DNA of 64,000 nt from Candidatus Staskawiczbacteria bacterium (GTDB lineage Bacteria > Patescibacteriota > Minisyncoccia > Minisyncoccales > Staskawiczbacteraceae). The translations under genes were made by a program, and so were the position numbers. The DNA is taken from assembly GCA_026395295.1 (NCBI GenBank), contig JAPLYZ010000012.1:65299-129298 (forward strand). The letters run 5' to 3'. The first letter of the stretch is position 1. Each line of letters begins with the position of its first letter. The notes under the pieces were generated by a model. It was not told the origin of the DNA and searched no databases. It was given only the letters and a program-made list of their open reading frames with translations. Below, in pieces: positions 23,462-64,000 of this stretch.

Positions 23462-24868
23462 ATGGAAGAATCTGAAAAAGTAAATTTCTCTGATTTTGTT
23501 AAGTGGACTCCCAAACAACGAGAGGCAGATTTGGCAACAAAGAATTACAAATATATTTTATATGGCGGAGCTATGGGAGGAGGCAAGAGTTATTGGTTGC
23601 GCTGGGAGGGAATAAAATTGTTAATGTATTATTGGGGAAAATATAAATTAAGCGGTGTGATGGTTGGTTTATTTTGCGAAGATTATCCGGCATTGAAAGA
23701 TAGGCATTTGAGCAAAGTTAAATTTGAGTTTCCAACTTGGCTTGGCACATATTCAGCGCAAGACCATAATTTTATTTTATCCTCTGATTACGGCGGAGGG
23801 ATATTGGGATTTAGAAACCTTGACGATGTTTCAAAATATCAGTCGTCAGAGTTTGCGGCCGAATTGGTTGATGAGCTTACAAAAAACGATAAAGAGACGT
23901 TTGATTTTTTAAGAACCCGATTAAGGTGGCCCGGAATTGAAGATACAAAGTTTCTTGCCGGAACCAACCCGGGAGGAATCGGACACGTGTGGGTTAAAAA
24001 TATGTGGATTGATAAAAAGTTTGACGACAACGAGCAAGAGAAAGATAAGTTTGCTTTTATACAAGCAAAGGCCGCGGATAATCCGCATATCGCACAGAGT
24101 TATTATAAATCGCTTGAGAGTTTGCCTGAGGGGCTACGCAAGGCTTTTCTTGAGGGAGATTGGGATTTATTCAAAGGGCAGTTTTTTGGTGAATGGAGAC
24201 GCAATATACACGTCTGCAAGCCCTTTCAGATACCGAGCGACTGGAAGAAATTTGTTTGCGGAGATTATGGATTTGCTAAACCTGCGGCAGTTTATTGGAA
24301 CGCAGTCAGTCCGGACGGAGTAATTTATATCTATCGAGAACTTTATTGCATAGAGCATACTTTTTCAGATTTAGCCAAAAAGATTATTGCAATGACTCCC
24401 GAATCAGAAGAACTTAAGTATTGGGTGTTTGATCCGAGCATTTGGTCAAAGAAAGGAGAATCGGAGTTATCCGGAGCTGAAATAATGCAAAGTGTTTATC
24501 GGGAGATAATGAAAAAGTCATTGATGCTTTTGCAGGGAAACAATGACAGGATTAACGGCGCGCGGGTGTTTAGGGAATACTTGAAACCATATTTGCAAGA
24601 GGAAATGATTACGGCCAAGTTGCAGGTGTTTGAGAATTGTATGGAGTTTATAAGAACCGTGCCGGCATTAGTTTATGACGCAACAAAAGTTGAGGATTGC
24701 GACACCGACGGAGAAGATCATTCATATGACAGCGAAAGATATGGTTTAATGTCGGCTCCGACTCCGGCCATTACTTCTGATAAGTTGAAACAAAAATTAT
24801 TTAACGAAAGAATGAGAAGAAATAAAGAACGCAACAAATCAAAGAATAAATTTTTTAGAATGGTATGA
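23462..24868 (+). CDS. terL: Terminase large subunit
   Basis: Walker A ILYGGAMGGGKSYW, Walker B-like AAELVDELT, C-terminal nuclease region with acidic motifs (CGDYGF, DTDGEDHSYD); 468 aa. Confidence 0.9.
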   Translation: MEESEKVNFSDFVKWTPKQREADLATKNYKYILYGGAMGGGKSYWLRWEGIKLLMYYWGKYKLSGVMVGLFCEDYPALKDRHLSKVKFEFPTWLGTYSAQDHNFILSSDYGGGILGFRNLDDVSKYQSSEFAAELVDELTKNDKETFDFLRTRLRWPGIEDTKFLAGTNPGGIGHVWVKNMWIDKKFDDNEQEKDKFAFIQAKAADNPHIAQSYYKSLESLPEGLRKAFLEGDWDLFKGQFFGEWRRNIHVCKPFQIPSDWKKFVCGDYGFAKPAAVYWNAVSPDGVIYIYRELYCIEHTFSDLAKKIIAMTPESEELKYWVFDPSIWSKKGESELSGAEIMQSVYREIMKKSLMLLQGNNDRINGARVFREYLKPYLQEEMITAKLQVFENCMEFIRTVPALVYDATKVEDCDTDGEDHSYDSERYGLMSAPTPAITSDKLKQKLFNERMRRNKERNKSKNKFFRMV

Positions 24869-43700: not shown

Positions 43701-46700
43701 ACAGCGAAGAAAGAGTTGGCAACATTGAAAGGAAACAGAACCCCCGAAGTTAAAACAAGGAAAGCAGAGTTAGAAGCAATTATAAGCAAATTGGAAAAGG
43801 CGAAAAACGATGGAGAGAACAGGATGATAGAAGAAACGCAAAAATATAGTTTAGATTTGGCTGACCTTGCAGTTAAACAGGCTCAAGCTCAAGGACTTGA
43901 TTTGGGAGAATACAATAAGGAAAGTGATGTTTCAGAATGGAACTCATTTAAGGACGATTTTATAACTCAAATATCTGAAAGACCTTACATTGAAAGCAAC
44001 TGGAATGACAAAATTTCAACGATTTTGGACGGAATAATTGCTGATTTTAAAGAACAATTTAAAGGTAGAGTATTAACTCCAACTCCCATTGAAGAGTCGG
44101 CAACAGATATTATAAACTCTTTGTTTGGTGAAGAGCCAGCAAAGCCCGTTTCTCCCTCTATAAATAAGGCAAAACAAGCCACCAGTGAGGCGAATATAGA
44201 GGAGTTGGTAAATACATCAACTCCCGTAGAAATCCCTGTTTTTGAGGAGTCTGGCGCGGTTTATCAAAAGAACGAAAAGAACATTAAAACCGCCAAAGAA
44301 GCGGCAACTGATTTAATCAGAGGATATGTGGAAAGGGGAGATACAATGCAAAGTTTGTCGGAGGGACAAATGGGAAAATACGGAAGCGATTATCAGGCAT
44401 CAGTTGGCGGTTATTTGAATGGCAAGAATGTTGGCAATAAAAAAATAATTGTATTTTCAGTCAACGGAAAGGAGGTTAACGAAACATTTTCATTGAAAAC
44501 AATCTTTGACGAAATAAAGAAAGGCCAACCTGCTCAAAAGAAAACTCAACCTACTCAAGAATTATTCTCCGGATTAAAAACAATTCCAAAAGACACAGTT
44601 TTATTTCACGGAACATCGGGAGAAAATGCAAAGAATATAAAACAGGACGGAGTTTATCAGACTGACGATGTTTATGCTTCTTATGGCAGAGGATTTTATT
44701 TAACAGACGACAAAGCAGTCGCGCAGGATTATGCAGACGAATTGGATAATGGGCAAGTGCTTGAATTTTCAGCAAAGAAAGATTTAAAACTTTTAACTCC
44801 GACAAAAACAGAAAGAGAAGACATCGTTGACCTTACCGGAGAATCGCAGGATGAAATGATACAGCAGTTGTTGGGAGATAATTATGACGGATTTTATCTT
44901 CCGGATATTGGAATTGGCGACGGCTCGCCGCAAGTTGTTTTATATAATAAAACCGGCTTGAATTTTGAACGCAACGACATCAATGATTTGATTTCTTTGA
45001 CACAAAATCTTGATAACGGTATAATTAAATCGTATGGACAACCAAACGAACAATCAAATGACGTTCTTGGGAGTTCACCTGTCGCAGGAACACTTCCCGA
45101 AGCTTTACCAGTGGGCGAAAGACAACCCAGCGACACTGGCGGAGCAGTTGCAGAGCATAGCGGACAAGTGGCACAACGGGGATTGCGTGTCGGCGGCGCA
45201 AGCGCTCGAATCGGATCTCAAGTAAGCAAGACAGAGCAGTTTGCAATAAATAATCAAATTGAAAGTTTAGTTGCAGAAAAGGGCGACAATCCTGACGCTT
45301 ACAGCGAAGAACAAAAAAATCTACTCTCCCAATATTCCGGTTCAGGAGGGCTTGAAGAAGCCGGGGCCAACAACAGAGGTTTATTGGATGAATACTTTAC
45401 CCCACAGAAAGTTGTATCTTTTATTTGGAGTAAATTAAAAGACAGGTTGCCAATTCTCGGCGACTATACAATAGTTGAACCTTCTGTTGGAACGGGAAAT
45501 TTCATTGATGAAGCTCCGGAGGGTACAAACATCGAAGCGTTTGAGATAAATAAAACATCGGCAACAATCGCAAAGGTTCTATATCCCAATGCCGGTGTAG
45601 AGAACGCACCATTTGAAAGTTTATTTATTGACGACAGGGGAAATAAAAAGACGGTCAAGCCGTTTGCTCGTTTGGTTATAGGAAATCCGCCATACGGAGA
45701 ACACAGAGGCATTTATAAAGGGCTTGGCGAAGAACCGCGCATTAATCGCTACGAAGATTATTTTATAAAGCGTGGTTTGGATATTACGCAGGACAAAGGA
45801 TTTGCGGCAATGGTTGTGCCATCGGGATTTTTAAGGACAGCCAGCGATTATGCAAAAAATGAAATTGCAAAACTCGGATATTTGGACTCTGCTTACAGGT
45901 TGCCGAATAATGTTTTTGACAACACCGATATTGGAACGGACATTGTAATTTTACGCAAAGAAGCAGTAACGCCCGAATTTGCATACTCTCTCGCCAACAG
46001 AACACAAACACTTTCAGACGACAATTATTTTAAAGAACATCCCGAAAACATCTTGGGTGTAGAGAAAGAAAGAAAAGGCAGGTTTGGAATGGAGAAATAT
46101 GTGGAGGGGAGCCTTGACTTCACTCCGGCAGAGGAAACCCAGCTCAAAAACGTCGCAAAGAGCAATTCTCCGCAGGGTTCTCTGTTCGATCAGAAAGAAA
46201 TTGTTAAAGAAATTGAAAATGAAATAGACAAGGGAGCAATCAGCAATGAAAAAGAGTTTGTAAAGAATTGGAGCAAGGACGTAAATAAACTGGAATTGTC
46301 GACCCAACCGAAAGTAAATAAGGGAGGCATAACAATTTCTTCTCCAAAGAAAAGCGAAACGCGTTTGGATTTATCAGAATACTATTCTGATATGTCGGAC
46401 GCAGAATTAAGAACCTACACGGAAATAAAACCAACAGGAGAGGGCAACGAAGCGTTGCTCAATGGGGAATTAAGCCCGGAAGATGTAATCAATTACCTCA
46501 ACCTTGAAAATGGCAAATGGTTTAACAACCTTAATTATTTCACTGGCGATATTTATGAGCGATTAGACCAACTCGAAGTAAATAAATCCAAGATGTCGCA
46601 AGGTCAGTATAAAAAGCAGTATGACGGATTGATTAAAGTCCTGCCGGAAAAATACAATGTTGACAGAATAAACATTTCTCCGAACACTCCTTTTGCGGAT

Positions 46701-49700
46701 ATGACTTTAAAGTATGACGGGAAAGATCAGACATTAAAACAATCATTCAAAAACTTTCTATCAACGCTCCCGCGCGATACTTTTGCCGACACTTCGAGAT
46801 ATGAGATTAACGAATATGTGGACGAGCAGTCAGTCAGAGGAAATGACAAGGTCAGAAACCAGACCGTCAGAGTTCAGAGAAGAGAAATTGGCAATCGATT
46901 ATTCTCAAGATTTTTAAGGGAGGCATTAACTCCGGAACAAACAAAGGCAGTTGAGGACAGGTACAACAGGTCTTTCAATAGTTATGTCAGACCGGATTAT
47001 AGGCAGGTTCCGCTTTTGGGAAAAATACACGGAACATTCAAAGGAAATCCTTTGACGATTAAAGACTACCAGTTGCAGGGTATTGGATTTTTGGTGAACA
47101 AAGGATTGGGTTTGATAGCTCACGATGTAGGACTGGGAAAAACAATGCAGTCTATAATTGCCATAAACGAAATGTTAAAACGCGGTTGGGCCAAGAAACC
47201 TTTGATTGTTGTTCCGTCCGGCAATGTTTATACCCAATGGATTAAAGAGGTGCAAGAAATTATACCCGGCATTGAAATCAATGGATTAACCAATTTGGGA
47301 GGCGCATTTGCCGGCGACCTTTCAACACTGGAAATCAAACCCGGCACAATTTCTATAATCACTTACGAGGGATTTAAGAAACTGGGATTTAAACAGGAAA
47401 CCTATAACGACCTTACCTCTGAATTACAAGACACAATAGAAGCTCCCACAGGCCTTACAACCGCACGAGCGAAACAAGCCGAGCAAGCTAAGGTGCAAGA
47501 GACCATAGGCAAAGGAATCAAGGGAACACTCGGGGCAAAGACCTTTGAGGATTTGGGCTTTGACTTAATGATGATTGACGAGGTGCAGAACGCAAACCAT
47601 ATCATTAAGGGAGCCAAGTTGCAGGAAGCCGGCAAAGCCAGTGAGTTCAGGGGTTTGAATATCAGACCGTCAGAATTGGGAATTAAAGCGTGGCTTGCTT
47701 CGCAATATATTTTGAAAAATAACAACAACAGAAATGTCTTTTTGGCATCGGCAACTCCTTTCACAAATAATCCAATGGAGTATTATTCGGTTTTATCTTT
47801 GTTGGCCCGGGAGAGAATGAAGAAGTCCGGATTAAAGAACGTCAACGAGTTTATGAATACCTTTATGGACATCTCGTTTGATTTTGAAATTACAGCGGAC
47901 GGGAAATACAAAGAGAGAAATAATATAAAGGGATTTAAAAATTATCAGCAATTCCAAAAAATACTCACAGAGTTTATTGATTTTAGGGACGGAGAGGAGG
48001 TTGGCATACAGAGACCGAACAGATTGTCTTTGCAGACAACCTTGAAAGCAACCAAAAACCAAGTGGACTTAATGACTTCCGCGCAGGAATTGTTTAACGA
48101 CAAGAATAAAAACAAAGGCGGGGCATTGAAAGGCGTGGGAGAAATGAGAGCGATTACATTCAGCCCTTATGCCTCTTCGTATTATAAAGGTGCTCGCCCA
48201 ACATACGAGAGTTTTGTAAATAACAGCCCAAAGGTTAAAGCCGTTGTAGAAATGGTGATACAGAACCATTCCGACAACAAAGACGCGAACCAAGTCATTT
48301 ATTCTCCAATCGGCGTGGAATATCTGCCGATGATTAAAGATTACCTTGTTCAGAAAGGCGGTTTTAAGGCAGACCAAGTCGGTATTATAACCGGATCGGT
48401 TAAGGGAGACGAAAGAGTGGTTATCCAAGACCGATTTAACGAGGGCAAGGTAAAGGTTCTTATAGGCTCTGATGCAATTCAGGAGGGAGTTAATCTGCAA
48501 CGCAAGTCCACTGATTTATATATTATGGCATTGCCGTGGAACTTCACTGAATTAAAGCAGGTAACGGGCAGGATTTGGAGGCAGGGCAACGAATGGAAAA
48601 ATATCAGGGTTCACAATGTCTTTATAGAAAACAGCGTTGACGTTTTCCAGTCGCAGAAATTGGAAACGAAACAGAACCGCTACGAAAACTCCTTGAAATT
48701 CAAAGGGGATTATCTTGATGTAGGAGACATCGACTTTGACGAATTGAAAATGGATTTAATCAGCAGTCCGGTAATGAGAGTTGCCATAGAAAAATCTATG
48801 GAACAGAGGACAAGAGAAAGAACATTAAACGAGGCAAAATCCAATTTGGGATTTTATTCGAGAAAAGCCGACAAACTTTTAAACGCTCAAGAGGATTTGG
48901 ACAGTGCAAGACAAAATGTCGTTCAATATACAGAATGGGCAAAAGGAGAAAAAGACGAATACTGGTCAAAGAGAATTGCAGAGGCCGAATCCGCCTATGC
49001 CAAAAAACAAAAAGACTACGAAGCCGTTAAAAAAGATGTTGAGGATAAAGGACTGATTGATTTAAACCAGCTCAAGAGTTTAGAAAATAATGTCGCAAAC
49101 GGACAGAAGAGTTTGGACGCATTAAATAAAGATTTCAAAACCAAAGAAGATGCGGCAGTCAAGCAGGAAACAGCAAGGGTTCAGGAAATTACAACCACCG
49201 GTAATGATTATAAACAGATTAGGGGTAATTTGGCAGAGCAAAATAAAACATTCTTTATAAAGAACGAAGCCCCGGCCAATGTTAAGAGAAGTCCGGCTGG
49301 TTTGGCTTCTGCCGGTGGCAGTAAAATAGGGAACTTCGAGCAGATAACTTCTCCGGACGAGGCAGACAAATTGAAAATCTATGACGAGGTTAAGGCGTTG
49401 ATTCAAAAATACGCTCAATCTATCGGTGAAAGTTATCTTCCGCGTGGAGCCGCAGGCGTGTTATACCAGTCAGGCAACATCAGAGTAACGGGAATGAATG
49501 CTTTGTCTGTGGCAACCCACGAAATAACACACTTTTTAGATAAGGCGTTTAAGATTTCAGATCAGATTATGGGAGTTCAGGGAGTGAGCAGAAGCGGCAG
49601 ACCGGTGTATGAAAAGACCACAGCAAAATTAAGAAAGGAAATGACGGATTTATACAATAAGTATTATCCGACAGCCAAAAAATCTCACAAATTAAGCAAG

Positions 49701-52469
49701 AGAATGCTTGAGGGTTTTGCAACCTTGCTGGAAAAATACATTGAACAGCCGACAATGATTTCGGGAGAATTTCCAAACCTTGTCAGAGAGTTTTTAACTC
49801 CGGACGGTTCTTTCTATGAACCGGTGATTGGAGACATTATAAAAGATGTCAAAGGAATCATTGGGAGATACCAAAAATTAAGTCCGTTGGATAAAATCGG
49901 AGCAAGAATTATAAACGACAAGGTCAATGTAAATAAAGAGAGTTTTTTAAATCTCTATGAAAAGATTAAGACCTTTATTTTCCACAACATTTATCCGATT
50001 GAGGTTTTGTCAAAGAAGTCCGGCACGCACTTTACAGCCAACGCTCCGGATTTGTGGCTTACCCAGTACAACAATTCCAACGCTATAATCACAAACAACC
50101 TTATGGGAAAGAAAGGATATTGGGCTTGGAAAGACGGCGTGATTACAAAGATGTTTGATTTTAACTGGAAAACTCTTGTCGATAAAATGCGAAAGGACAA
50201 AGTAGATGTGCCTTTTGGAAATTATTTAATCGCAAGAGACCAGTACTACAATTATCAGGAACTCAAAAGAATAAAACAAGAAATCGACGCGCTGGAAAAA
50301 CAGCAAGAAAACGGCGACGACTTAACCAAAATAATATCTGACACTGGCATAACCGCCGCAGACCAGTTGGCTTTGTTGCAGGATAAATATGCAAAAGAAG
50401 CAAAAGTTTTGGAAAACAACGGCTTTACAGAGCAGGAAGTAACCGATGCTTATTTGGCCGGACAAGATAAATTTACTGAACTGGAACAAATGCACGACAC
50501 GCTGACAAAAGCGGACTTGGCGTTTTTGCACCAGCCATTCATTCAATTATTAAATGACGAGGAATACTCCAACTTAACTGATAAGGTGGGCTATGCCTCT
50601 ATGAAACGCGCGTTCTACGACGAAATAGCAGGAGAGGAAGGGGGTGTGGTAATGGCAAAACGTCCGGGAGGGGTTAAAGCATCTTCCTTAATGCACAGAA
50701 AGGGATCAGAGAGGGCTATATTGCACCCTGTCTATTCCGGTATGATGAACCACGCTGAAATTACGCGCAAAGGATTAAAACAAATTGTCTATAACAAAAT
50801 TGGAGATGTAGCCGAGAAGTTCCCGGAGTTAATGCAAAGGTTGCAATTAAAGGTTATTCCCGATGTGGACGGAGCTTTGCATTTCCCTCAGGAAAAAGAC
50901 AGCAATATTATAATGGCTCGCAAAGATTATAAACGAAGCCCGATTTTGGTTGACGAACAAATTAAAAGAGTTGTGGACGAGGTTTTGACTTTCCAAAATA
51001 TCAACATATTTGAAAAGTTGGTTGTGTCCGTAAATAGGATTTTCGTTAAAGGAACAACCGGACTATATACTCCTTTCGCTATTGCAAACTGGACGGTTGA
51101 CCAATCATCTGCAACAGCACAGACAAGAAATAAATATCTACCAGTGTACGACCAACTCACGAAATTGGAAAAGGCACTCAATCCGCGCAATATAGAACAC
51201 ACTTACGCTTTGGAATATATGATTGCCGGAGGCGAACGACAAACCTTTGCCGGACATCAGGACGCTTCGCCGAATGAATTGTTTGACATTATACAAAAAA
51301 ATAGAAAAGGAGTTTTAAAAATGCTTGACCTCGTCAATGGAGGTTTCAGTTTGCTGGCTGTGCCGTCTCAATACTCTGAACTCTCAACAAGAATGACGGA
51401 ATATATTAAGTCGAGGCTTGCTGGCAAGCCGTCTATTGTTGCTTTGGAAGAAGCAGGCAGGGTTTCGGCTCCGTTTCACCACATTGGGAGTTGGGGAGGA
51501 GGCAGATTTTGGAAGACGTGGATTAAATCCATTCCTTTCGCCAATGCTTCTTTTCAGGTTTTGGCTCAAGAGTTGGAAACATTGGAAACACCGGAGGGCA
51601 GAAAGAGATATTTATTCGTTATGTTAGCGACCATTGCCGCCGCCATTGCCGGAATGCTATATACTTTCAGTGCGGCAACCGAAGAGCAAAAGCAATTATA
51701 CACGGACTTAAACCCCGATGACCTTTCAAGATACATTTATCTGCCGAATCCGAACGGCAAGAGTTTGATTAAAATAAGGGTTCCGCAAGAAATGGTTTTT
51801 ATCGGCACGATTATAAATATGACGATTATGGACAGAATGGCGAACGCAAATTACACCGCAGGAGAGTATGTGAATGCTGGCACAGCTTGGCTTCCACAGC
51901 AGTTGAATATAACACAGCCGATCAGAATGTTCTTAAATTGGGTTCCTCAATTTATCAAGCCGGCATTTGAGACAATCGCCAATGTTAAAGACTATCCAAA
52001 AGTTATGCCTCTCGAGAGCCAATCACAGACGGCAAAGCAACCGGAGAACAGATTTACACCAGCGACTTCGCCTGTGGCAAAGTGGCTCGGCCAGACATTT
52101 AAACTTTCTCCGATTAAGATTGATTATTTATTGACCGGATATGTGGGCAGAGCTTCGGGAATGGTAACCGGCAAGATACAAAACTACAATCCTTTCAGCT
52201 CAATGAACCAAGATTATTATTTTGATTCGGGCCGAAAATTGCAGACCTACTACGATTTGAGAGACAAGAATAACCAACTTTACAGCGATTACAAAAACAA
52301 GAGAACGGTTTTAAGTAACAAAGAGATTTCAGCAATGATTGTGCAAAAAGCCAAACTGAAAGCCATTGATAATTTGATTCAGACCTACGGAACGCTTAAC
52401 CCGGACAAACAACCAAAGACATTGCAGATTTTCAGAAACAAAATAATTAACTCAATCAACAAACTATGA
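40758..52469 (+). CDS. Giant polyvalent virion/effector protein (3,903 aa): membrane-active N-region, ART-like domain, N6-adenine MTase, SNF2 helicase, HExxH peptidase, C-terminal TM
   Basis: LFH(1284)GTS..YGRGFYLTDD..PQVVLYN; VEPSVGTGNF and N(1643)PPY; GLGK(2128)T, D(2274)EVQ, SATP, GSDAIQEGVNLQ, QVTGRIWRQGN; H(2921)EITH; TM helix YLFVMLATIAAAIAGMLYTF. Confidence 0.75.
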   Translation: MSLFDDYKNNQGLAVPVETPTLVAKTENPFQKAWDFVTQKKLAQIPAPKSTGTLFDQYQAEKNAVPIETTPGKTPMLQDYFNANNIEQVGWVDLESKGLMTPDLEKLKKAGFAPPVSETPVTKPTPAPVYKGLTTDQSQKLNENIDLAKNPPKIDTSLKISAPAIGEWVDTPSMSWTPEETKKALDKAFVHPDTGSPRDLQMRQIAYDTMKAKIDPVSSLFFDNFLPTKVIFALDRDGALVNEARQKINDEFSNAHPFLSILPVAVAQLANLALIGKSGGGFGLAEKTTATAGRLSNWMPNVVRMIGLGAESGSIFGIVSGISEALNQAEQQNFQPKKLLTETLKGVGTGSTLGIAGGAPQLWQRVLGSGGTLVSLSALQGYMQDGKIDAKDIANITINGILGAGFELIGGRAKTNIFSTKEQIRLGRDVTTAKLMENPAGTAPKTWTEAQGELVALEQLPKMIYDLGREETIKGMIAKHPDMTVQQANKMYDDITALPRALATGYGAKMAPYYQQIPKDFYGADVQIQKDYFTTVRKGVMEDGLTIPQSIDVANQTFTPKIFYSHPEATTPVDIHAENQATQAEANKMLQAKTGTPIELTGWNTSVGGKDSGFRSPDRYESQAYSASKMQFSNKGEVNVNKTTDKLNNPYVANDQTEVLKFLGNTDLVKRTAEELKNTSSLSPNKPIVVEADNYIRTELLKQGYDGVIYKNNGRRPEYQVFNVKKQLGVGETKALIASGDQQAISDEVNKRLEDFRQKADLMASNEGAGVRQYSSDQSVGETKIYNYFKLDRAKSDMFKQAKQLKQYAHELLYENDPLYKELYDKKVSLEESNLNAATDEIDVQKMFEDISKEEKILTNNLNKYETSKDTPTFAPSEGVKAKGTGQTQPAQEKQTPTSEVKSQVQKPQEGQKLPTSEVITPEALSAIESKVTGIVEEIKKGRPTPAEMLEKTPSDYSEIWSNGFDYYRENISTPAENEIKTAKKELATLKGNRTPEVKTRKAELEAIISKLEKAKNDGENRMIEETQKYSLDLADLAVKQAQAQGLDLGEYNKESDVSEWNSFKDDFITQISERPYIESNWNDKISTILDGIIADFKEQFKGRVLTPTPIEESATDIINSLFGEEPAKPVSPSINKAKQATSEANIEELVNTSTPVEIPVFEESGAVYQKNEKNIKTAKEAATDLIRGYVERGDTMQSLSEGQMGKYGSDYQASVGGYLNGKNVGNKKIIVFSVNGKEVNETFSLKTIFDEIKKGQPAQKKTQPTQELFSGLKTIPKDTVLFHGTSGENAKNIKQDGVYQTDDVYASYGRGFYLTDDKAVAQDYADELDNGQVLEFSAKKDLKLLTPTKTEREDIVDLTGESQDEMIQQLLGDNYDGFYLPDIGIGDGSPQVVLYNKTGLNFERNDINDLISLTQNLDNGIIKSYGQPNEQSNDVLGSSPVAGTLPEALPVGERQPSDTGGAVAEHSGQVAQRGLRVGGASARIGSQVSKTEQFAINNQIESLVAEKGDNPDAYSEEQKNLLSQYSGSGGLEEAGANNRGLLDEYFTPQKVVSFIWSKLKDRLPILGDYTIVEPSVGTGNFIDEAPEGTNIEAFEINKTSATIAKVLYPNAGVENAPFESLFIDDRGNKKTVKPFARLVIGNPPYGEHRGIYKGLGEEPRINRYEDYFIKRGLDITQDKGFAAMVVPSGFLRTASDYAKNEIAKLGYLDSAYRLPNNVFDNTDIGTDIVILRKEAVTPEFAYSLANRTQTLSDDNYFKEHPENILGVEKERKGRFGMEKYVEGSLDFTPAEETQLKNVAKSNSPQGSLFDQKEIVKEIENEIDKGAISNEKEFVKNWSKDVNKLELSTQPKVNKGGITISSPKKSETRLDLSEYYSDMSDAELRTYTEIKPTGEGNEALLNGELSPEDVINYLNLENGKWFNNLNYFTGDIYERLDQLEVNKSKMSQGQYKKQYDGLIKVLPEKYNVDRINISPNTPFADMTLKYDGKDQTLKQSFKNFLSTLPRDTFADTSRYEINEYVDEQSVRGNDKVRNQTVRVQRREIGNRLFSRFLREALTPEQTKAVEDRYNRSFNSYVRPDYRQVPLLGKIHGTFKGNPLTIKDYQLQGIGFLVNKGLGLIAHDVGLGKTMQSIIAINEMLKRGWAKKPLIVVPSGNVYTQWIKEVQEIIPGIEINGLTNLGGAFAGDLSTLEIKPGTISIITYEGFKKLGFKQETYNDLTSELQDTIEAPTGLTTARAKQAEQAKVQETIGKGIKGTLGAKTFEDLGFDLMMIDEVQNANHIIKGAKLQEAGKASEFRGLNIRPSELGIKAWLASQYILKNNNNRNVFLASATPFTNNPMEYYSVLSLLARERMKKSGLKNVNEFMNTFMDISFDFEITADGKYKERNNIKGFKNYQQFQKILTEFIDFRDGEEVGIQRPNRLSLQTTLKATKNQVDLMTSAQELFNDKNKNKGGALKGVGEMRAITFSPYASSYYKGARPTYESFVNNSPKVKAVVEMVIQNHSDNKDANQVIYSPIGVEYLPMIKDYLVQKGGFKADQVGIITGSVKGDERVVIQDRFNEGKVKVLIGSDAIQEGVNLQRKSTDLYIMALPWNFTELKQVTGRIWRQGNEWKNIRVHNVFIENSVDVFQSQKLETKQNRYENSLKFKGDYLDVGDIDFDELKMDLISSPVMRVAIEKSMEQRTRERTLNEAKSNLGFYSRKADKLLNAQEDLDSARQNVVQYTEWAKGEKDEYWSKRIAEAESAYAKKQKDYEAVKKDVEDKGLIDLNQLKSLENNVANGQKSLDALNKDFKTKEDAAVKQETARVQEITTTGNDYKQIRGNLAEQNKTFFIKNEAPANVKRSPAGLASAGGSKIGNFEQITSPDEADKLKIYDEVKALIQKYAQSIGESYLPRGAAGVLYQSGNIRVTGMNALSVATHEITHFLDKAFKISDQIMGVQGVSRSGRPVYEKTTAKLRKEMTDLYNKYYPTAKKSHKLSKRMLEGFATLLEKYIEQPTMISGEFPNLVREFLTPDGSFYEPVIGDIIKDVKGIIGRYQKLSPLDKIGARIINDKVNVNKESFLNLYEKIKTFIFHNIYPIEVLSKKSGTHFTANAPDLWLTQYNNSNAIITNNLMGKKGYWAWKDGVITKMFDFNWKTLVDKMRKDKVDVPFGNYLIARDQYYNYQELKRIKQEIDALEKQQENGDDLTKIISDTGITAADQLALLQDKYAKEAKVLENNGFTEQEVTDAYLAGQDKFTELEQMHDTLTKADLAFLHQPFIQLLNDEEYSNLTDKVGYASMKRAFYDEIAGEEGGVVMAKRPGGVKASSLMHRKGSERAILHPVYSGMMNHAEITRKGLKQIVYNKIGDVAEKFPELMQRLQLKVIPDVDGALHFPQEKDSNIIMARKDYKRSPILVDEQIKRVVDEVLTFQNINIFEKLVVSVNRIFVKGTTGLYTPFAIANWTVDQSSATAQTRNKYLPVYDQLTKLEKALNPRNIEHTYALEYMIAGGERQTFAGHQDASPNELFDIIQKNRKGVLKMLDLVNGGFSLLAVPSQYSELSTRMTEYIKSRLAGKPSIVALEEAGRVSAPFHHIGSWGGGRFWKTWIKSIPFANASFQVLAQELETLETPEGRKRYLFVMLATIAAAIAGMLYTFSAATEEQKQLYTDLNPDDLSRYIYLPNPNGKSLIKIRVPQEMVFIGTIINMTIMDRMANANYTAGEYVNAGTAWLPQQLNITQPIRMFLNWVPQFIKPAFETIANVKDYPKVMPLESQSQTAKQPENRFTPATSPVAKWLGQTFKLSPIKIDYLLTGYVGRASGMVTGKIQNYNPFSSMNQDYYFDSGRKLQTYYDLRDKNNQLYSDYKNKRTVLSNKEISAMIVQKAKLKAIDNLIQTYGTLNPDKQPKTLQIFRNKIINSINKL

Positions 52470-56924: not shown

Positions 56925-58031
56925 ATGAGAACTGCGGGTTATCAGTTCTCAACATTTTTAGAAGCAATTTTATTATCAGAGGGGATTGATAATAAAAAAA
57001 TTAGAAGCAATTATAAGCAATTACAATTAAACAATAAAAATATGTGGTTCAAAAATTTAATAAAATATCTAATGGGCAAAGTTGAAGAAACCCCAATACC
57101 AGACGGATTTATTTCCAGTCCTCCAGATTTTAGGGATGTTAAAGCATCAGATATTTTAGGCGATGTAAGCACGGCGGAAAATCCAACACCGGACAACGTA
57201 TCTTGCCCTTATGTTTTGACGCAAAAGAATCAAGGTTTGCTTCCTATTTGCGTTGGAGAAAGCGGGGCCACAATAAACGAATACGAAAAACGAAGGCAGG
57301 AAATAGCCGTAGAATTTGACGGCCAATGGTTATATGACGAATGCAAGAAGATTGACGGATTGCCGGCAGGAACGCAGGGGACTTACTTTAGAGCTGTATT
57401 ATCGGTCTTAAAGAATAAGGGAGCCAAGCCAGTGGGCGGAAAGGAGGAAGACGCAGGAAACTACAAAATAGCAGGATATGTGCAGGTAGAACCCAATTTT
57501 GACGCTATAAAGCGGGCTATATGGAAATGGGGGACTGTTCTTATGGGTTTTAGGGTTTATACTGGCGGAAGTTGGAATGCGTCTCCGATAAAAATTCCGT
57601 CCGGGAGTAAAGTATCTGGCGGACACGCGACAGTTGGAAAGGCTTTTACAAAAGAATTTATCCGGGGACAGAATAGTTTTGGCGCCGGGTGGGGAAGTAA
57701 TGGAGATTTTGATTTTGGGTCAGAATTTCTTCCTTATGAATGCTGGGCGGTTGTCCAAGATATTCCGACAACTCTTTTGCCAGATCAGAACAATAAGCCA
57801 AAACATACATTCACTGTTAATTTGTTGCCCGGGTACAACAGCGATGAAGTAAAGATTTTGCAGGATTGCTTGAAGTGGTTAGGCTGTATGGCAAAAACAC
57901 AGGCAAGCACCGGATTATATGGACAGATTACGATTGACGCAGTTAAAAATTTTCAAGGTCGCTACGGGATAACAACCACGGGAAACGTGGGACCGTTGAC
58001 TATATTACAATTAAATAAATTATTCCAATGA
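56925..58031 (+). CDS. Endolysin candidate: papain-like (C1-type) cysteine peptidase plus C-terminal peptidoglycan-binding domain
   Basis: DFRD..., NQGLLPICVGES (Cys), SGGHATVG (His), GQNSFGAGWGSNGDF. C-terminal LYGQITIDAVKNFQGRYGITTTGNVGPLT. AAAGGAGGTG lies upstream of ATG 56925; ATG 57042 is an alternative start. Confidence 0.6.
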   Translation: MRTAGYQFSTFLEAILLSEGIDNKKIRSNYKQLQLNNKNMWFKNLIKYLMGKVEETPIPDGFISSPPDFRDVKASDILGDVSTAENPTPDNVSCPYVLTQKNQGLLPICVGESGATINEYEKRRQEIAVEFDGQWLYDECKKIDGLPAGTQGTYFRAVLSVLKNKGAKPVGGKEEDAGNYKIAGYVQVEPNFDAIKRAIWKWGTVLMGFRVYTGGSWNASPIKIPSGSKVSGGHATVGKAFTKEFIRGQNSFGAGWGSNGDFDFGSEFLPYECWAVVQDIPTTLLPDQNNKPKHTFTVNLLPGYNSDEVKILQDCLKWLGCMAKTQASTGLYGQITIDAVKNFQGRYGITTTGNVGPLTILQLNKLFQ

Positions 58032-59156: not shown

Positions 59157-59309
59157 ATATGTTATTTAAATTTTAATAATATAGTATTGCTTTAATGGTA
59201 ACTTTTTTTAAGAAATTGACAAGGGTTTTTGAAAGGAATAATGTGAAACCACAAAATTAAAAAATAATTAATAACACGTTGTGTCCGAAAGGACAAGGCG
59301 AGAAAAATC

Positions 59310-59337
59310 TTGCCTGACACTACCAACGTGGTATAAT
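59310..59337 (+). promoter_or_regulatory. Candidate promoter upstream of the integrase leader
   Basis: TTGCCT (59310-59315), 16-nt spacer ending TGG, TATAAT (59332-59337). A second match is TTGACA-17-TAATGT at 59216-59244. Confidence 0.45.
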
Positions 59338-59343
59338 AAAAAA

Positions 59344-59445
59344 TGCAGGAGCAATCCTGCAACCACACGTGTGGTTTACGCCCAACCGAGCAATCGGCTG
59401 GAACGAGCATTATACCCGGGAGTAGTGTCCCGGGTTTTGCTTTCT
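59344..59445 (+). promoter_or_regulatory. Highly structured ~100-nt leader ending in a terminator-like hairpin directly before the int start codon
   Basis: TGCAGGA-GCAA-TCCTGCA (59344-59361). 14-bp palindrome ACCACACGTGTGGT (59362-59375). CCAACCGA-GCAA-TCGGCTGG (59382-59401). ACCCGGGA-gtagtg-TCCCGGGT (59414-59435), then TTTGCTTTCT and ATG. Confidence 0.5.
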
Positions 59446-60357
59446 ATGAAAGTAAAAGAACAGTTTGAACCGTTCGTTCAGTACAAGGTAAAACAGGGAT
59501 GCGCCCAGCATACTATCACAGAGTATAGGCGTTTCATTTCTGAAACCTTATCGTGCATTGCTGAGAAAAAACTCAGCCAGTTAAGAGTTATAGATCGTGT
59601 TGATATTATGGAGTTGGGTCGACAACACGGTTATTGGGGAGAACAAAGAGCGGTCAGCACATTCAGGCAGTTTTGCCAGTATCTTAATGATAAAGGCGAG
59701 AAACTGCCTTTTCGTTTTCAAGACATATTGGTGCCGTCAGTTATTGAGCGCGAGCAGGATTATTTATTGCCCGAAGAGTTTGAGGACTTTATGAATAAAA
59801 TCCCGTTGGACTTTTACGGATTAAGAGACAGATGTTTGTATGAATTGTTATGGTCAACCGGTTGTAGAATAGGAGAGGCATTGGCAATAAATATAGACGA
59901 CATAAATTTCAAAGAGAAAGAAATAAAGGTCAAAACATTCAAAGGGGGAGAGGGGACACGGGTTTTCATTTCAGAGCGTATGGAGGGGTGGCTGAAAGAA
60001 TGGCTGGCAAAAAGAGGCGATAATTGTCCGGCATTATTCATTGTATATTTTGGCGACATTGTGCGACTTAAAAGGAGTATGTCAAACAAACGATTGCTGG
60101 CTTACAGAAAAGCATTCAGGATTACAAAAAAGATTTCACACAAAGCATTCAGGACAGGGTTTGCAACTTATTTAATGGAGCAGGGAGCCAACATAAAAGA
60201 AGTGCAGGTTTTATGCAGACATCGTTCTCCGCGCACGACATTAAAGAGTTATCTGAAATATCAGAAAACAAAAGTCAAAGACGTTCACCAGAATATATTT
60301 AACAACCTCACTTCGAAGTTTAAAAATATAATTCGGGAGACGGCAGAAGTCTGGTAA
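59446..60357 (+). CDS. int: Tyrosine recombinase / phage integrase
   Basis: Catalytic pattern TGCRIGEAL (Arg), HKAFRTGFAT (H..R), LCRHRS...TLKSYL (H...Y). ATG 59446 is used because track start 59281 reads through the promoter and leader hairpins. Confidence 0.9.
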   Translation: MKVKEQFEPFVQYKVKQGCAQHTITEYRRFISETLSCIAEKKLSQLRVIDRVDIMELGRQHGYWGEQRAVSTFRQFCQYLNDKGEKLPFRFQDILVPSVIEREQDYLLPEEFEDFMNKIPLDFYGLRDRCLYELLWSTGCRIGEALAINIDDINFKEKEIKVKTFKGGEGTRVFISERMEGWLKEWLAKRGDNCPALFIVYFGDIVRLKRSMSNKRLLAYRKAFRITKKISHKAFRTGFATYLMEQGANIKEVQVLCRHRSPRTTLKSYLKYQKTKVKDVHQNIFNNLTSKFKNIIRETAEVW

Positions 60358-60429
60358 AAAAGTTATCCACACCCTCAAAATGTTAGGTGGGCTTGACACG
60401 CTTCTTTGATATGATAAAATTAAAATTGT

Positions 60430-60687: not shown

Positions 60688-60743
60688 CCACAGTGGGCAA
60701 AACGTTAATAATTACAAGAGCCGCCTTTGGGCGGTTTTTGGTT
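60688..60743 (+). repeat. attR core plus native rpsI 3' end and terminator; left copy of the 50-bp direct repeat
   Basis: CCACAGTGGGCAAA (60688-60701) equals attL. 60694-60743 is identical to 61730-61779. It contains ...TGG GCA AAA CGT TAA and the hairpin CCGCC-tttg-GGCGG followed by TTTTT. Confidence 0.75.
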
Positions 60744-60772
60744 TTTATCCACAGGTTGGGGTATTTACTTCA

Positions 60773-60794
60773 TATGGTAACATATGTTACCATA
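60773..60794. promoter_or_regulatory. 22-bp perfect palindrome (operator candidate) just upstream of the HTH gene
   Basis: TATGGTAACATATGTTACCATA, ending 5 nt before ATG 60800. Confidence 0.55.
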
Positions 60795-60799
60795 CAAAT

Positions 60800-61054
60800 A
60801 TGAATAAAGAATATTACTCAACAACAGAGGTTGCGAACATATTTAAGGTTAGTCGTAAGACAATTTTTATTTGGATAAAAAACGGGAAAATGAAAGCCGA
60901 AAAAGTCGGTCGTAATTATGTTGTTCCACATTCCAGCATTGTAGAAAAAATGGGTAGCACTCTTGGAATAGAAAAAAAGGCGGAAATTGAAAAGACAATA
61001 GATAGGGCAATTGGGGAATACGAGCAAACATTTAGAAAACTTGGTAAAGAATAA
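60800..61054 (+). CDS. Excisionase/MerR-type HTH DNA-binding protein (putative antitoxin)
   Basis: YSTTEVANIFKVSRKTIFIWIKNGKMKAEKVGRNYVV is a typical HTH_17/excisionase-family pattern; 2-nt gap to the Doc gene. Confidence 0.6.
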   Translation: MNKEYYSTTEVANIFKVSRKTIFIWIKNGKMKAEKVGRNYVVPHSSIVEKMGSTLGIEKKAEIEKTIDRAIGEYEQTFRKLGKE

Positions 61055-61056
61055 GA

Positions 61057-61485
61057 ATGAGACCAAAATCAATAAATGTAGCAGAAATCGAGTTTATTGC
61101 ATTTAGACTTGCAGAGAAGTTAATGACTTGGAATGAGCCGATTCCAGATTTTGGCACTAGATTCCCGAATATCTTGGAAAGTTGTATAAACCAGCCATTT
61201 ATGCAATTTAGCAGGAAAGATTTGTATAGAGGGTTAGTTGGGAAGGCGAGTATTTTATTTTATTTAATGATCAAAAATCATCCCTTCCAGAATGGCAATA
61301 AAAGAATTGCAATTATGACTTTGTTTCATTTTTTGGGGAAAAATGATAAATGGCTTGGCATTTCCAACGAAGCTTTGTATAAATTTGCAAAAGATGTCGC
61401 AAGCAGCAAGCCACGTTCTCGGGAAAAGGTAATCGCGCACATACAAGAAGTAATCAAAAGAAATTTAATCGATTTACCCAAATAA
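61057..61485 (+). CDS. doc: Doc/Fic-family toxin (death-on-curing-like)
   Basis: Fic/Doc core motif HPFQNGNKR (HxFx[DN]GNKR); 142 aa. Confidence 0.75.
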   Translation: MRPKSINVAEIEFIAFRLAEKLMTWNEPIPDFGTRFPNILESCINQPFMQFSRKDLYRGLVGKASILFYLMIKNHPFQNGNKRIAIMTLFHFLGKNDKWLGISNEALYKFAKDVASSKPRSREKVIAHIQEVIKRNLIDLPK

Positions 61486-61512
61486 TAAATAAAGTAATTA
61501 AAAATAAAAATT

Positions 61513-61707
61513 ATGAAGCCTACAACTAAAGTTAGAATATTTTACTGGGTTGGTTTGTTATTTTTTGGATGGATAATATATAACACAGATGATGTGTTAG
61601 AATTATTAAAATGGGTTACTGTGGGGGTCGCCATTATCCTTGTAGAAATATTTACACGAAGAGAGTGGAAACAGGCGACGAAGGAAGAAAAGTTAATTGA
61701 GGAATAA
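61513..61707 (+). CDS. Small two-TM membrane protein
   Basis: VRIFYWVGLLFFGWIIY and WVTVGVAIILVEIF helices; 64 aa. Confidence 0.4.
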   Translation: MKPTTKVRIFYWVGLLFFGWIIYNTDDVLELLKWVTVGVAIILVEIFTRREWKQATKEEKLIEE

Positions 61708-61729
61708 AAATGACAGAAGGGGAACTTGG

Positions 61730-61779
61730 ATGGGCAAAACGTTAATAATTACAAGAGCCGCCTTTGGGCGGTTTTTGGT
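61730..61779 (+). repeat. Right copy of the 50-bp direct repeat (rpsI 3' remnant plus terminator)
   Basis: Identical to 60694-60743. Similarity resumes after a ~15-bp indel (GGTTGGGTATTTC versus GGTTGGGGTATTTAC at 60753-60767). Confidence 0.75.
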
Positions 61780-61802
61780 TGGGTATTTCTATCGCAAAAA
61801 GC

Positions 61803-61832
61803 TTGACAGCGTATGTTGATATATGGTATAAT
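61803..61832 (+). promoter_or_regulatory. Strong sigma70-type promoter with extended -10
   Basis: TTGACA (61803-61808), 18-nt spacer ending TGG, TATAAT (61827-61832). Confidence 0.55.
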
Positions 61833-61986: not shown

Positions 61987-62118
61987 ATGCCCGAAGGCAT
62001 AGTGCTAGATACTAAACAGGCGGAAAGGTCCCTAATGGAAGGGGAGCCGACGCTGGTTTACGTCTGCGACAAGTGCGAGAAATTACTGGACGCCCTCCGC
62101 GCCCAGCAGAAGAATTAA
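61987..62118 (+). CDS. Possible 43-aa CxxC peptide
   Basis: Read by eye: MPEGIVLDTKQAERSLMEGEPTLVYVCDKCEKLLDALRAQQKN*; no clear RBS. Confidence 0.25.
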   Translation: MPEGIVLDTKQAERSLMEGEPTLVYVCDKCEKLLDALRAQQKN

Positions 62119-62261: not shown

Positions 62262-63170
62262 ATGAAAAGCAAGACAATGACTTATGCTGATGTTGGCGTT
62301 GATTACGAAGCCATGGATCCATTCAAGCGCATGGCGCAATTGGCCGGGCGTGAAACCTCGGGCAATATCGCTCGGCTGAACGGCGGGGAATTCCATGAGC
62401 GCAGAGATAGTCGCGGAGACAGCGTTTACCTTATTGAGACGCAGGACAGCTATTTAGCGCACGTTGAAGAAGGTCTCGGCACAAAGAACCTCGTCGCTGA
62501 CGCAATGTACAAGCTTACGGGAAAGTCGTACTACGACCAAATAGCCCAGGATGCAGTGGCAATGATAGTCAATGACATGATTACGCTCGGCGCTTTACCG
62601 CTTTCGGTGGCGATGCACCTTGCGGTTGGCGATTCCAATTGGTTCGAAGATGAAGAGCGTTGCCACGACCTTGTTGCTGGTTGGAGAGGGGCCTGTGATT
62701 TGGCTCGATGCGTCTGGGGCGGGGGCGAAACACCAACACTTAAAGACATCGTGGCGCCGGGCACAGTTGTTCTTTCCGGTTCGGCGATGGGTATTGTGAA
62801 GCCTAAAAATCGGCTGATTAGAGGAAATATCAAGCCTGGCGATGCAATTATTCTTGTTCAGAGTTCTGGTATTCATGCCAATGGACTCACCCTTGCGCGG
62901 AGGATTGCCGATAAATTGCCAAACGGGTACAACACGGAATTGAGTGGTGGTACTTATGGACAGGCTTTGCTTTCTCCGACGCACATCTATGTCGGGCTTG
63001 TGGAGGATTGCCTCAATGCCGGCATAGATATTCACTATGCTGTTAACATCACCGGTCATGGCTGGCGCAAGCTCATGCGTTCGATGAGATCATTTACTTA
63101 CGTGATTGAGCGCTTGCCAGCCCAGTTCCCGATATTTGATTTCATTCAGAGGCATGGGAGTATTTTCTAA
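62262..63170 (+). CDS. AIR-synthase (PurM)-related protein, 3'-truncated by IS insertion
   Basis: YADVGVDYEAMD N-terminus and GLGTKNL, GGGETP, GIHANGLTLAR resemble the PurM superfamily. ...FPIFDFIQRHGSI aligns with PurM WP.VF.WLQ..G.V, but the following EM..TFN.G region is missing. ~52% GC. Confidence 0.55.
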   Translation: MKSKTMTYADVGVDYEAMDPFKRMAQLAGRETSGNIARLNGGEFHERRDSRGDSVYLIETQDSYLAHVEEGLGTKNLVADAMYKLTGKSYYDQIAQDAVAMIVNDMITLGALPLSVAMHLAVGDSNWFEDEERCHDLVAGWRGACDLARCVWGGGETPTLKDIVAPGTVVLSGSAMGIVKPKNRLIRGNIKPGDAIILVQSSGIHANGLTLARRIADKLPNGYNTELSGGTYGQALLSPTHIYVGLVEDCLNAGIDIHYAVNITGHGWRKLMRSMRSFTYVIERLPAQFPIFDFIQRHGSIF

Positions 63171-64000
63171 TCAAGAAAGGATCCTGAAATCTCGGACATG
63201 ACTTTGTTGGAAAAGGTTGTCGGGAATTGGAGCTTTTGACCTTTAAAATTATTGAATAATTTCTCTTTTTCTTTTTGCATAAACCCGGCGAATTCGTTGT
63301 CGGAGGATGAAAGAGCTATCTTGTCTAAATCTGTAAAAGTGACATTGGGTTTTAAATATTGTTTTGCGTTTTTCAGTGATTTTAATTTTGCATATGGCGT
63401 CAGATATGTTTTGTAAATCTTTTTCTCTTTTCCGCGTTTGTCGGTTGTGATTGTTGGATATCCGCACGGCCTGTGAAAATTAAGGTAATCGTTAAAGCAA
63501 CTTTTGTAAAATTCATTGAAGTGTTTGGCATATCCCTTGGCAATAAATCTGTATCCGATATGTTTCCTGATGATAAAGTTGTTCTTGCCCTCAACCAAAC
63601 CATTGTCGTTTGAATGTCGGGGTCTCGATTTGGTCTGCGAAATCAATAGTTTGTTCAACAATTCAGCCACCACCTTGTTGATGTATTCGGAACCGTTGTC
63701 GGAATGGAAATTGATTATTGAAAAAGGAAACTGACTTAACAAGTCTTCTAATAGCGGCAAAAGATATTCTTCTGAGATTCTCTCAACGCATCCGATGATT
63801 TCCCACTGAGTGACTTCGTCAACAATGTTAATGTGATAAATTCCTTTTTCCTTGTCCAAATCCCCTTGGTGAACCGTATCCACCCGCAGGAATCCGGGCA
63901 GACCATTGTTCTCGGGCTTTGTTCTTCTGCCAATTAGAATCTTTACAGGGTTGGTTTTCTTGACAGTCACGCTATGTGAAACATATTGCCTTGTCGCGCG
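63160..64000 (-). mobile_element. Insertion sequence (partial in window) disrupting the PurM-like gene
   Basis: rve transposase, an abrupt GC drop at ~63130-63165 and loss of the PurM-like C-terminus. The exact IS end cannot be set without the other terminus. Confidence 0.55.
63167..64000 (-). CDS. DDE transposase with rve (integrase-core) domain, 5' end beyond the window
   Basis: D (LRVDTVHQGD), D (FHSDNGSEY), E (NGLVEGKN). The frame stays open upstream of GTG 63970 to the window edge. Its stop overlaps the PurM-like stop (CTAA). Confidence 0.8.
   Translation of the reverse strand, partial: RATRQYVSHSVTVKKTNPVKILIGRRTKPENNGLPGFLRVDTVHQGDLDKEKGIYHINIVDEVTQWEIIGCVERISEEYLLPLLEDLLSQFPFSIINFHSDNGSEYINKVVAELLNKLLISQTKSRPRHSNDNGLVEGKNNFIIRKHIGYRFIAKGYAKHFNEFYKSCFNDYLNFHRPCGYPTITTDKRGKEKKIYKTYLTPYAKLKSLKNAKQYLKPNVTFTDLDKIALSSSDNEFAGFMQKEKEKLFNNFKGQKLQFPTTFSNKVMSEISGSFLD

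Follow-up and report, generated by a model that had tools for sequence, protein, structure and literature searches.

A predicted HTH-Doc addiction cassette between two copies of the rpsI gene end in Candidatus Staskawiczbacteria, apparently independent of the adjoining prophage

The window analysed here is a stretch of 64,000 nucleotides (64 kb) from a Candidatus Staskawiczbacteria contig (JAPLYZ010000012.1), in which the 3' end of rpsI, the gene for ribosomal protein S9, hosts two elements head to tail: a prophage of ~43.3 kb and, immediately beyond it, a 1,037-bp unit with a helix-turn-helix (HTH) gene and a gene for a Doc (death-on-curing) family toxin. An initial annotation of this DNA had offered three interpretations of the small unit: a satellite or cassette mobilised by the phage, an internally deleted older prophage, or an addiction module. 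Our data are best accommodated by the last of these. On balance, we favour a chromosomal type II toxin-antitoxin (TA) cassette of HTH-Doc type, with its own promoter and a Doc predicted to be kinase-type, that would have been inserted at rpsI by Campbell-type recombination, with the phage following later. To judge from the sequence comparisons below, the cassette's presence at rpsI is independent of the phage and probably predates it; prophage and unit would then be two unrelated tenants of one conserved gene end, and the idea of a phage satellite falls away.

The unit is delimited by the 50-mer TGGGCAAAACGTTAATAATTACAAGAGCCGCCTTTGGGCGGTTTTTGGTT, which occurs exactly twice in the window, at 60694-60743 (R1, plus strand) and 61731-61780 (R2, plus strand), with 0 mismatches; any match to it was found in 0/100 shuffles. 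This agrees with the perfect repeat that had been annotated, whose left copy was correctly placed and whose right copy, given as 61730-61779, was one base off. R1, delimited by exact-repeat search, comprises the native rpsI tail (TGG GCA AAA CGT TAA) and the rpsI intrinsic terminator, the hairpin of which was located at 60715-60740 by terminator scan and folding. The native tail as a whole occupies 60688-60708, and its sequence CAGTGGGCAAAACGTTAA is identical to the rpsI end of the relative L172. R2 is a second, non-coding copy of tail and terminator. Identity between the copies breaks off sharply on both sides (CCACAG-R1-TTTATCC vs CTTGGA-R2-GGGTATT), and a candidate continuation past the 50 bp (GGTTGGGTATTTCT against GGTTGGGGTATTTACT, after a 14-bp gap) was too short to evaluate. 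One repeat and the cassette together make up the 1,037 bp; three open reading frames (ORFs) lie between R1 and R2, and no terminal inverted repeats were detected at the unit ends (60744/61730). Downstream of R2, a promoter scan identified a consensus sigma-70-type promoter (TTGACA-18-TATAAT, 61803-61832, plus strand, 12/12 matches). Because empty sites in relatives run from terminator to promoter to next gene, we read this promoter as native downstream DNA, and it marks the return to the chromosome after R2.

ORF calls and family matches bear out the three bracketed genes of the initial annotation, and only these three lie between the repeats, so that the unit indeed lacks a recombinase of its own. 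The first encodes an 84-residue HTH_17/excisionase-type DNA-binding protein (60800-61054, plus strand; PF12728 3e-9, TIGR01764 7e-9) and stops 2 bp ahead of the ATG of the second, which encodes a 142-residue Doc family toxin with the motif HPFQNGNKR (61057-61485, plus strand; PF02661 8.6e-9; TIGR01550 DOC_P1 6e-14, above cut-off; PDB entry 9vzc, 'Death-on-curing family protein', 2.9e-6). The third is a small membrane ORF of 64 residues with two hydrophobic segments (61513-61707, plus strand). Searches returned >6,000 Doc homologues, and those with a source name are from Patescibacteria. An HTH homologue stands directly upstream of Doc in 158/165 loci, and around the Doc motif (KNHPFQNGNKRIA) 13 consecutive residues are invariant in 29 homologues. 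The partner protein matches HTH_17 and the excisionase-type TIGR01764 and gave no Phd/YefM family match; by these matches, this Doc carries a non-canonical partner in place of Phd/YefM.

To place the cassette within its family, 160 further cassette loci were collected from >1,000 matched, and 113 non-redundant cassettes were compared. The left end of the window's cassette (60744-60799, plus strand) contains the motif TTATCCACA (60745-60753), a -35-like TTTACT and the perfect 22-bp palindrome TATGGTAACATATGTTACCATA (60773-60794), which ends 5 bp ahead of the HTH ATG and is the only perfect palindrome found in the unit. A AACATATGTT-centred palindrome with arms of at least 6 occurs upstream of the HTH gene in ~92/113 cassettes vs 10/113 in the control, and the sequence on either side of it differs in step with the three HTH sequence groups (TATGGTAAC, TATATTAAC and TATTGTTAC). 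We predict that the 22-bp palindrome is an operator overlapping the cassette promoter, through which the HTH_17 protein would regulate its own synthesis, acting as both antitoxin and autorepressor to the putative toxin. Together with the Pfam, NCBIfam and PDB matches, the conserved palindrome is consistent with the addiction module proposed at the outset.

The 64-residue membrane ORF seems peripheral to this module. It has an identical counterpart (NT155_03820) in a Ca. Staskawiczbacteria metagenome-assembled genome and other homologues at 75-89% identity, its homologues elsewhere do not adjoin Doc, and it is extra cargo seen only in the cassette of the window's lineage. Four loci (L176-L179) place homologues of 75-77% identity in compact arrays of small ORFs on one strand, most of them membrane ORFs; one array begins with an Xre-type HTH gene, and the arrays appear to form a further type of small accessory gene array in Patescibacteria. 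A view of this ORF as a relic of an older prophage found no support, the arrays having no other similarity to the window or its prophage.

Evidence that the cassette belongs to rpsI irrespective of the phage comes from relatives. HTH-Doc cassettes whose Doc shares 90-96% identity with that of the window follow immediately on the rpsI terminator in at least six lineages, L007, L092, L089/L090, L091 (a contig that begins at the rpsI stop codon), L174 and L175, and no prophage or integrase was found in the available flanks of these six lineages. All rpsI-linked cassettes follow a common layout of rpsI tail, terminator, T-run, ~20 bp, a -35-like TTTAC/TTGAC, the AACATATGTT operator and ATG; a close cassette in L008 occupies a different locus. 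Conversely, the relatives with the most similar S9 proteins (83-87% identity; L169, L170/171 and L172/173) have an empty site, with terminator, promoter and next gene in succession, and in L169 and L171 the downstream synteny is that of L007, minus the cassette. The comparison at rpsI that had been suggested initially has in this way yielded both states. It bears equally on the possibility of an ancient fixed duplication, in which all phage-free relatives would carry the segment and both repeats: many of them carry the segment, not all do, and the second repeat is present only in some. In L007 that second repeat is 28 bp of perfect identity followed by a different hairpin, in L092 it is recognisable and decayed, and in L089, L174 and L175 it is absent.

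The Doc genes share 81-86% DNA identity and differ at 35-55 synonymous codons. Since 14-19% of the Doc DNA differs, with that many synonymous changes, the association with rpsI appears to be old, and the high identity of the Doc proteins would reflect constraint. The gap between Doc (95%) and S9 (63%) protein identity was considered as a sign of recent horizontal transfer and is no proof of it, Doc DNA being only 81-86% identical. The identities of Doc do not track those of the HTH protein from lineage to lineage, suggesting exchange between cassettes. As part of the same favoured explanation, and held with the same modest preference, the cassette lineage would live right after the rpsI terminator in a Paceibacteria/Staskawiczbacteria-like clade of Patescibacteria, where it would come and go. 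The decayed second rpsI-tail copy of L092 (1715-1745) contains AAAGAGGTAAT, which matches the phage-supplied rpsI end of the window (17396-17415, GCAAAGAGGTAATGG) and is unlike L092's own AAAAAGATAAC; the match may be fortuitous, or it may go back to an earlier element that targeted rpsI.

Duplicated flanks are not confined to rpsI. Local alignment of the 300 bp upstream of the HTH gene against the 600 bp downstream of Doc detected a flanking direct repeat at a score of at least 36 in 18/113 cassettes (16%), nine of them at a score of at least 60, whereas the rates were 0.3% for mismatched flank pairs and 0.3% for mock cassettes placed at other positions of these loci. Repeats measure 23-112 bp, with 80-100% identity, and each locus has its own repeat sequence. 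The left copy ends 36-206 bp ahead of the HTH ATG (36-69 bp in about half of the cases), the right copy usually begins within 30 bp of the Doc stop (range -8 to +539 bp), and the spacing from repeat to repeat is mostly 770-950 bp. Perfect pairs are found in the window (50/50) and L028 (34/34). What is duplicated is commonly a gene end, in an arrangement that leaves the gene whole. The 3' end is concerned in a ComEC-like gene (L028), a Xer-like gene (L114) and rpsI, and the 5' end in a transketolase gene (L070). Several repeats are mosaics, a perfect block giving way abruptly to divergence (L070, 55 bp, p=0.009; L007, 28 bp, p=0.011; L114, p=0.025); such a pattern is unlike the uniform decay of an initially perfect duplication and points to recombination between diverged copies. 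The inconstant length of the repeats, and the lack of terminal inverted repeats in the window's unit, also set the cassette apart from transposons, insertion sequences (ISs) and miniature inverted-repeat transposable elements. A tRNA or tmRNA adjoins 9/60 cassettes, which by rough estimate is only mildly above expectation, and we do not take this adjacency as a sign of integrase targeting. The L114 repeat (411-470 and 1213-1272; 60 bp, 58/60) corresponds to the 3' end of a XerC/D-like tyrosine recombinase gene in convergent orientation, and L114 is one of only three cassettes with a tyrosine recombinase gene nearby.

The prophage, for its part, has the hallmarks of a temperate phage. The rpsI gene (16856-17413, plus strand; 185 residues, translation ending ...KSPQWAKR; Ribosomal_S9 match on the identical protein in L003) stands at the end of the series rpsM-rpsK-rpsD-rpoA-rplQ-rplM-rpsI (13.5-17.4 kb), the window itself opening in the secY-adk-map region. 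The gene ends ...CCACAGTGGGCAAAGAGGTAA, CCACAGTGGGCAAAACGTTAA stands at 60688, and the block common to the two is a 14-bp core, CCACAGTGGGCAAA; a search with the attR-side sequence places it at 17393-17406 (attL, plus strand), and it recurs at 60688-60701 (attR, plus strand). The last 8 bp of the attR core are the first 8 bp of R1, so that the left repeat does coincide with attR and the two elements do sit head to tail in one gene end, as annotated. Between the cores, PHROG and Pfam matches define the prophage (17407-60687, plus strand), which includes a large terminase (23462-24868), a peptidoglycan-binding, endolysin-like peptidase (56925-58031) and, beside its right end, a XerC/D-like tyrosine integrase (59281-60357, plus strand; PF00589 4e-26, phrog_1 integrase 4e-33, NCBIfam Xer-type recombinases). 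With the integrase at one end, the core at both, a terminase and an endolysin-like protein, the 43.3-kb stretch is by its gene content a prophage in the rpsI 3' end, and it supplies the last rpsI codons in the window (AAG AGG TAA). An identical S9 protein is encoded in five Logan contigs; of these, L003 and L004 were read, and both have the rpsI-phage junction of the window; no attP-type junction was found in viral contigs. A polyvalent protein of 3903 residues within the prophage (40758-52469) combines ADP-ribosyltransferase, Eco57I-type methylase, SNF2/ResIII helicase and LPD38 domains.

Several observations separate the cassette from this phage. R2 is preceded by CTTGGA rather than CCACAG and keeps only 8 contiguous bases of the core (TGGGCAAA; 9/14 positions match overall), whereas the whole core is present at R1; since R2 lacks CCACAG, only R1 could have served the phage. 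Nothing phage-like was found among the unit's genes, no phage or transfer gene fragments lie between R1 and R2, and the hallmarks of a phage satellite (its own integrase, replication genes, genes for helper exploitation or packaging) are absent from the 1,037 bp. Among 2.9 million viral contigs in IMG/VR there were 0 Doc relatives, and a tyrosine recombinase occurs in the fetched flanks (up to 4 kb each side) of only 3/113 cassettes. Given the phage-free carriers, the empty sites, the lack of viral Doc relatives and the rarity of nearby recombinases, these comparisons do not support the unit as a phage satellite or deleted prophage, the two phage-derived interpretations of the initial annotation. 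Its suggestion that TATCCACAGG, just inside the left repeat, is a degenerate core has also been superseded: that sequence is part of a TTATyCACAG motif of the cassette lineage, also found in the phage-free L092, L174 and L007. The motif TTATCCACA, a DnaA-box consensus, has only 2 copies in the 64 kb, at 60363-60371 (6 bp after the integrase stop) and at 60745-60753 (1 bp after R1), 382 bp apart. We rejected it as a phage arm site, as at least 2 matches arise in 9% of shuffles and the second copy is a cassette-lineage feature, conserved as TTATTCACA in phage-free relatives. The prophage would represent a separate tyrosine-integrase event that used the core in the genuine rpsI end, presumably after the cassette was in place.

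How, then, did the cassette arrive? Single-crossover integration of a circle that shares homology with the chromosome duplicates the homologous segment on both sides of the insert, and the reverse crossover removes it. We propose that the 50-bp repeat is the footprint of such an insertion at rpsI, in which a small circle made of a target copy (R) and the cassette (X) would have recombined once with the chromosomal copy, most plausibly by host homologous recombination. R1 would keep rpsI intact and terminated, and R2 would terminate the cassette. A crossover between R1 and R2 would remove exactly the cassette, a loss that would be penalised once Doc was freed from its labile antitoxin, and repeat-flanked units would persist. 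From this arrangement we infer a circular intermediate, the machinery that recombined it, the order in which the events took place and a stabilising part played by Doc. Campbell-type insertion is favoured because the repeats are locus-specific, variable and mosaic, the cassette ends are imprecise, and there are neither terminal inverted repeats nor a linked recombinase. Moreover, the R1 terminator of L007 is similar to the one that natively follows rpsI in a different lineage, L172, as would be expected if the incoming molecule had brought a foreign rpsI tail with it.

Several points weigh against this proposal. An old insertion does not account for the 50/50 identity in the window, which implies either that a unit from the same population re-inserted recently or that gene conversion took place. 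In the window, as in L007, the repeat has its left edge within the phage core, which is what integrase-mediated recombination at the rpsI tail would produce, and repeats flank only 16% of cassettes. Campbell-type recombination would cover spread between homologous sites and leaves aside the first repeat at a new locus. Toxicity of Doc, its neutralisation and operator binding are predictions from sequence. Lastly, unitigs built at k=31 fit an integrated copy and a free circle equally well, and we know of no described natural family of 0.8-1-kb TA circles that uses 23-112 bp of homology.

This ambiguity raises the possibility of an assembly artefact, which the initial annotation had named for the repeat: assembly would have joined either a free circle of 1,037 bp or a copy located elsewhere to the rpsI locus by way of the 50-mer common to both. 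In k=31 graphs the repeat forms a branch point, A-R-X-R-B looks the same as A-R-B plus a circle, and the unitigs L001, L002, L005 and L006 were rejected as evidence for a circle, their lengths being the k=31 outcome for any 50-bp repeat. An exact search with a 34-nt part of the repeat returned nothing from genome, metagenome and viral collections, and no conspecific empty or circular allele was thereby recovered. Both junctions are nevertheless reproduced in independent k=31 Logan unitigs of at least 20 samples (L001 is 987 bp + 2 x 30; L005 begins inside the repeat), which makes an artefact unlikely; furthermore, in L007, L092, L089, L174 and L175, where the repeats are shorter or have diverged, integration of the cassette after rpsI is unambiguous. 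A 50-bp repeat is normally spanned by reads of 100-150 nt and by larger assembly k-mers, and we regard an artefact as extremely improbable. An integrase-based origin deserves more attention, though we consider it unlikely. The unit would be a recombinase-less, att-flanked cis-mobilizable element (CIME), its repeats serving as attL and attR for rpsI-specific tyrosine integrases, such as that of the neighbouring prophage, and the unit would be inserted, excised or co-excised by such an enzyme acting in trans, through accretion and cis-mobilisation. The rpsI 3' end is a documented target of tyrosine integrases, and tandem arrays of a CIME and an incoming element have been described (PMC5704250). 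Other features that fit are the full 14-bp core at R1 and the TGGGCAAA kept by R2, the left repeat edge at CA(G/A)TGGGC, within the core, in each of the window, L007 and L092, the perfect block of L007 with its unrelated arms, reminiscent of an att identity segment, and the two copies of TTATCCACA, just after the integrase gene and just inside the cassette. Yet six of the 14 core bases are missing from R2, the cassette occurs in six phage-free lineages whose fetched flanks contain no integrase, and the unrelated repeat sequences at many other loci are not what a site-specific enzyme would produce; the phage-free occurrence of TTATyCACAG and the shuffle result for TTATCCACA tell against a meaning for those two copies.

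We consider it improbable that the repeats are true target-site duplications, formed de novo, perhaps by widely staggered breaks that were filled in or by replication template switching, with no target copy borne by the element. Locus-specific repeats of 23-112 bp set tight against a promoter-to-stop unit would be expected of such a process, the perfect pairs of the window and L028 would suit it, and so would the presence of cassettes at many different loci without a linked recombinase. It does not predict the mosaics of L007, L070 and L114, which are not expected from decay of a perfect duplication, nor cassette ends as variable as those recorded here, nor an element without terminal inverted repeats; to our knowledge, no bacterial mechanism has been established for target-site duplications of this length. 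Quite improbable, too, is a remnant of an older integrative element or prophage at the same att site that has been stripped by deletion down to the two att copies and the addictive TA pair. In its favour, integrative elements, IMESag-rpsI among them, commonly carry TA modules (PMC5704250). Repeats of 20-110 bp at gene 3' ends and beside tRNAs are typical att footprints, and the small-ORF arrays that hold homologues of the 64-residue ORF are possibly mobile DNA. Against such decay stand the lack of any phage or transfer gene fragment between the repeats, the 0 Doc relatives among viral contigs, and a left junction common to all rpsI-linked cassettes. Units with perfect or near-perfect repeats are already minimal (L028 and L114, 770-802 bp repeat to repeat), so that decay would have to run to completion before any repeat mutation, and repeatedly.

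Several further features of the window lie outside the rpsI end. Between 61803 and 62172 the perfect sigma-70 promoter precedes a GC-richer stretch of ~335 nt that is closed by two terminator-like hairpins. It folds far better than its shuffles (z = -4.9, with 0/100 equally stable), has no Rfam match at E<=1 and holds a 43-residue ORF (61987-62118) in which a CxxC motif occurs; the stretch could encode a small protein or a structured RNA not described before. Further downstream (62262-63970), a gene for an AIR-synthase-related protein (302 residues) ends where a minus-strand rve-type transposase ORF (63167-63970) begins. Only the first 72/156 positions of its C-terminal domain match, Logan unitigs also break at this boundary, and the gene may have been truncated by the IS. 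At the other end of the window, within the conserved secY-adk-map/ribosomal region, an island between map and tpiA (1883-5279) encodes an OLD-family ATPase-TOPRIM protein, a C-5 cytosine methylase (first 114 residues only), a NOV_C-domain protein and a Vsr mismatch endonuclease, and looks like a decayed restriction-modification or defence island. The region 7000-10000 has a GC content of 48-56%, against ~38% elsewhere, and its two large ORFs at 6918-8537 and 8861-9907, just upstream of alaS, gave no Pfam match.

Genome-reduced Patescibacteria are often said to be poor in mobile and defence functions, and here one very conserved family of Doc cassettes (>6,000 proteins) is scattered over many loci, with about one cassette in six still bearing a long target duplication and no linked recombinase. 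As a tentative generalisation, which we put forward with less confidence than the account of the window itself, the HTH_17-Doc cassettes of Patescibacteria might be recombinase-less mini mobile elements of ~0.8-1 kb from promoter to stop. They would travel as small circles or an equivalent intermediate, relying only on recombination by the host or on borrowed integrases; on insertion at a gene end they would leave long duplications peculiar to the locus, with the target gene intact, and they would retain themselves through the toxin, the rpsI tail being a recurrent landing site shared with temperate phages. Were this a real route of mobility, it would show how TA genes spread and persist in streamlined genomes and would provide a search signature: a gene end duplicated around a promoter-to-stop unit.

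Comparison with known systems places the cassette between several of them. CIMEs in accretion, as in the islands related to ICESt1/ICESt3 and in IMESag-rpsI, share with it a recombinase-less unit between direct repeats of a ribosomal-protein gene 3' end, a tandem arrangement with an integrase-bearing element in the gene-attached att copy, and TA cargo (PMC5704250). CIMEs are decayed integrative and conjugative elements (ICEs) or integrative and mobilizable elements (IMEs), both att sites of which are recognised by a related integrase. The present unit likewise has no integration or transfer genes of its own; unlike CIMEs, it spans 1 kb, shows no traces of decay from an ICE, IME or prophage, has an R2 that lacks part of the core, and belongs to a cassette that occurs without an integrase-bearing element. 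With the Phd/Doc modules (doc of phage P1; TIGR01550 DOC_P1) it has in common a Fic-fold toxin with H-x-F-x-N-G-N-K-R, a small partner gene 2 bp upstream, a palindrome overlapping the promoter and, presumably, an addiction or post-segregational role. It differs from them in its partner, an HTH_17/excisionase-type winged-helix protein in place of Phd/YefM, and in being chromosomal, extremely conserved and, among the matches seen, specific to Patescibacteria. Our literature search found no experiment on the HTH_17-partnered Doc subfamily and no prior description of repeat-flanked TA cassettes, of HTH/excisionase-type Doc partners or of Doc in Patescibacteria. The TA cassettes of chromosomal integrons and superintegrons are likewise small, bear promoters and stabilise their surroundings, and they too behave as mobile cassettes. 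IntI moves integron cassettes, which are bounded by attC sites, whereas the flanks here are duplicated local target DNA with no sequence common between loci, and no integron integrase was found near the cassettes in the fetched flanks. Although the circle is hypothetical in the present case, the arrangement resembles the Campbell-type integration of suicide plasmids, which likewise gives A-R-X-R-B, allows precise deletion by the reverse crossover and leaves mosaic repeats when donor and recipient differ.

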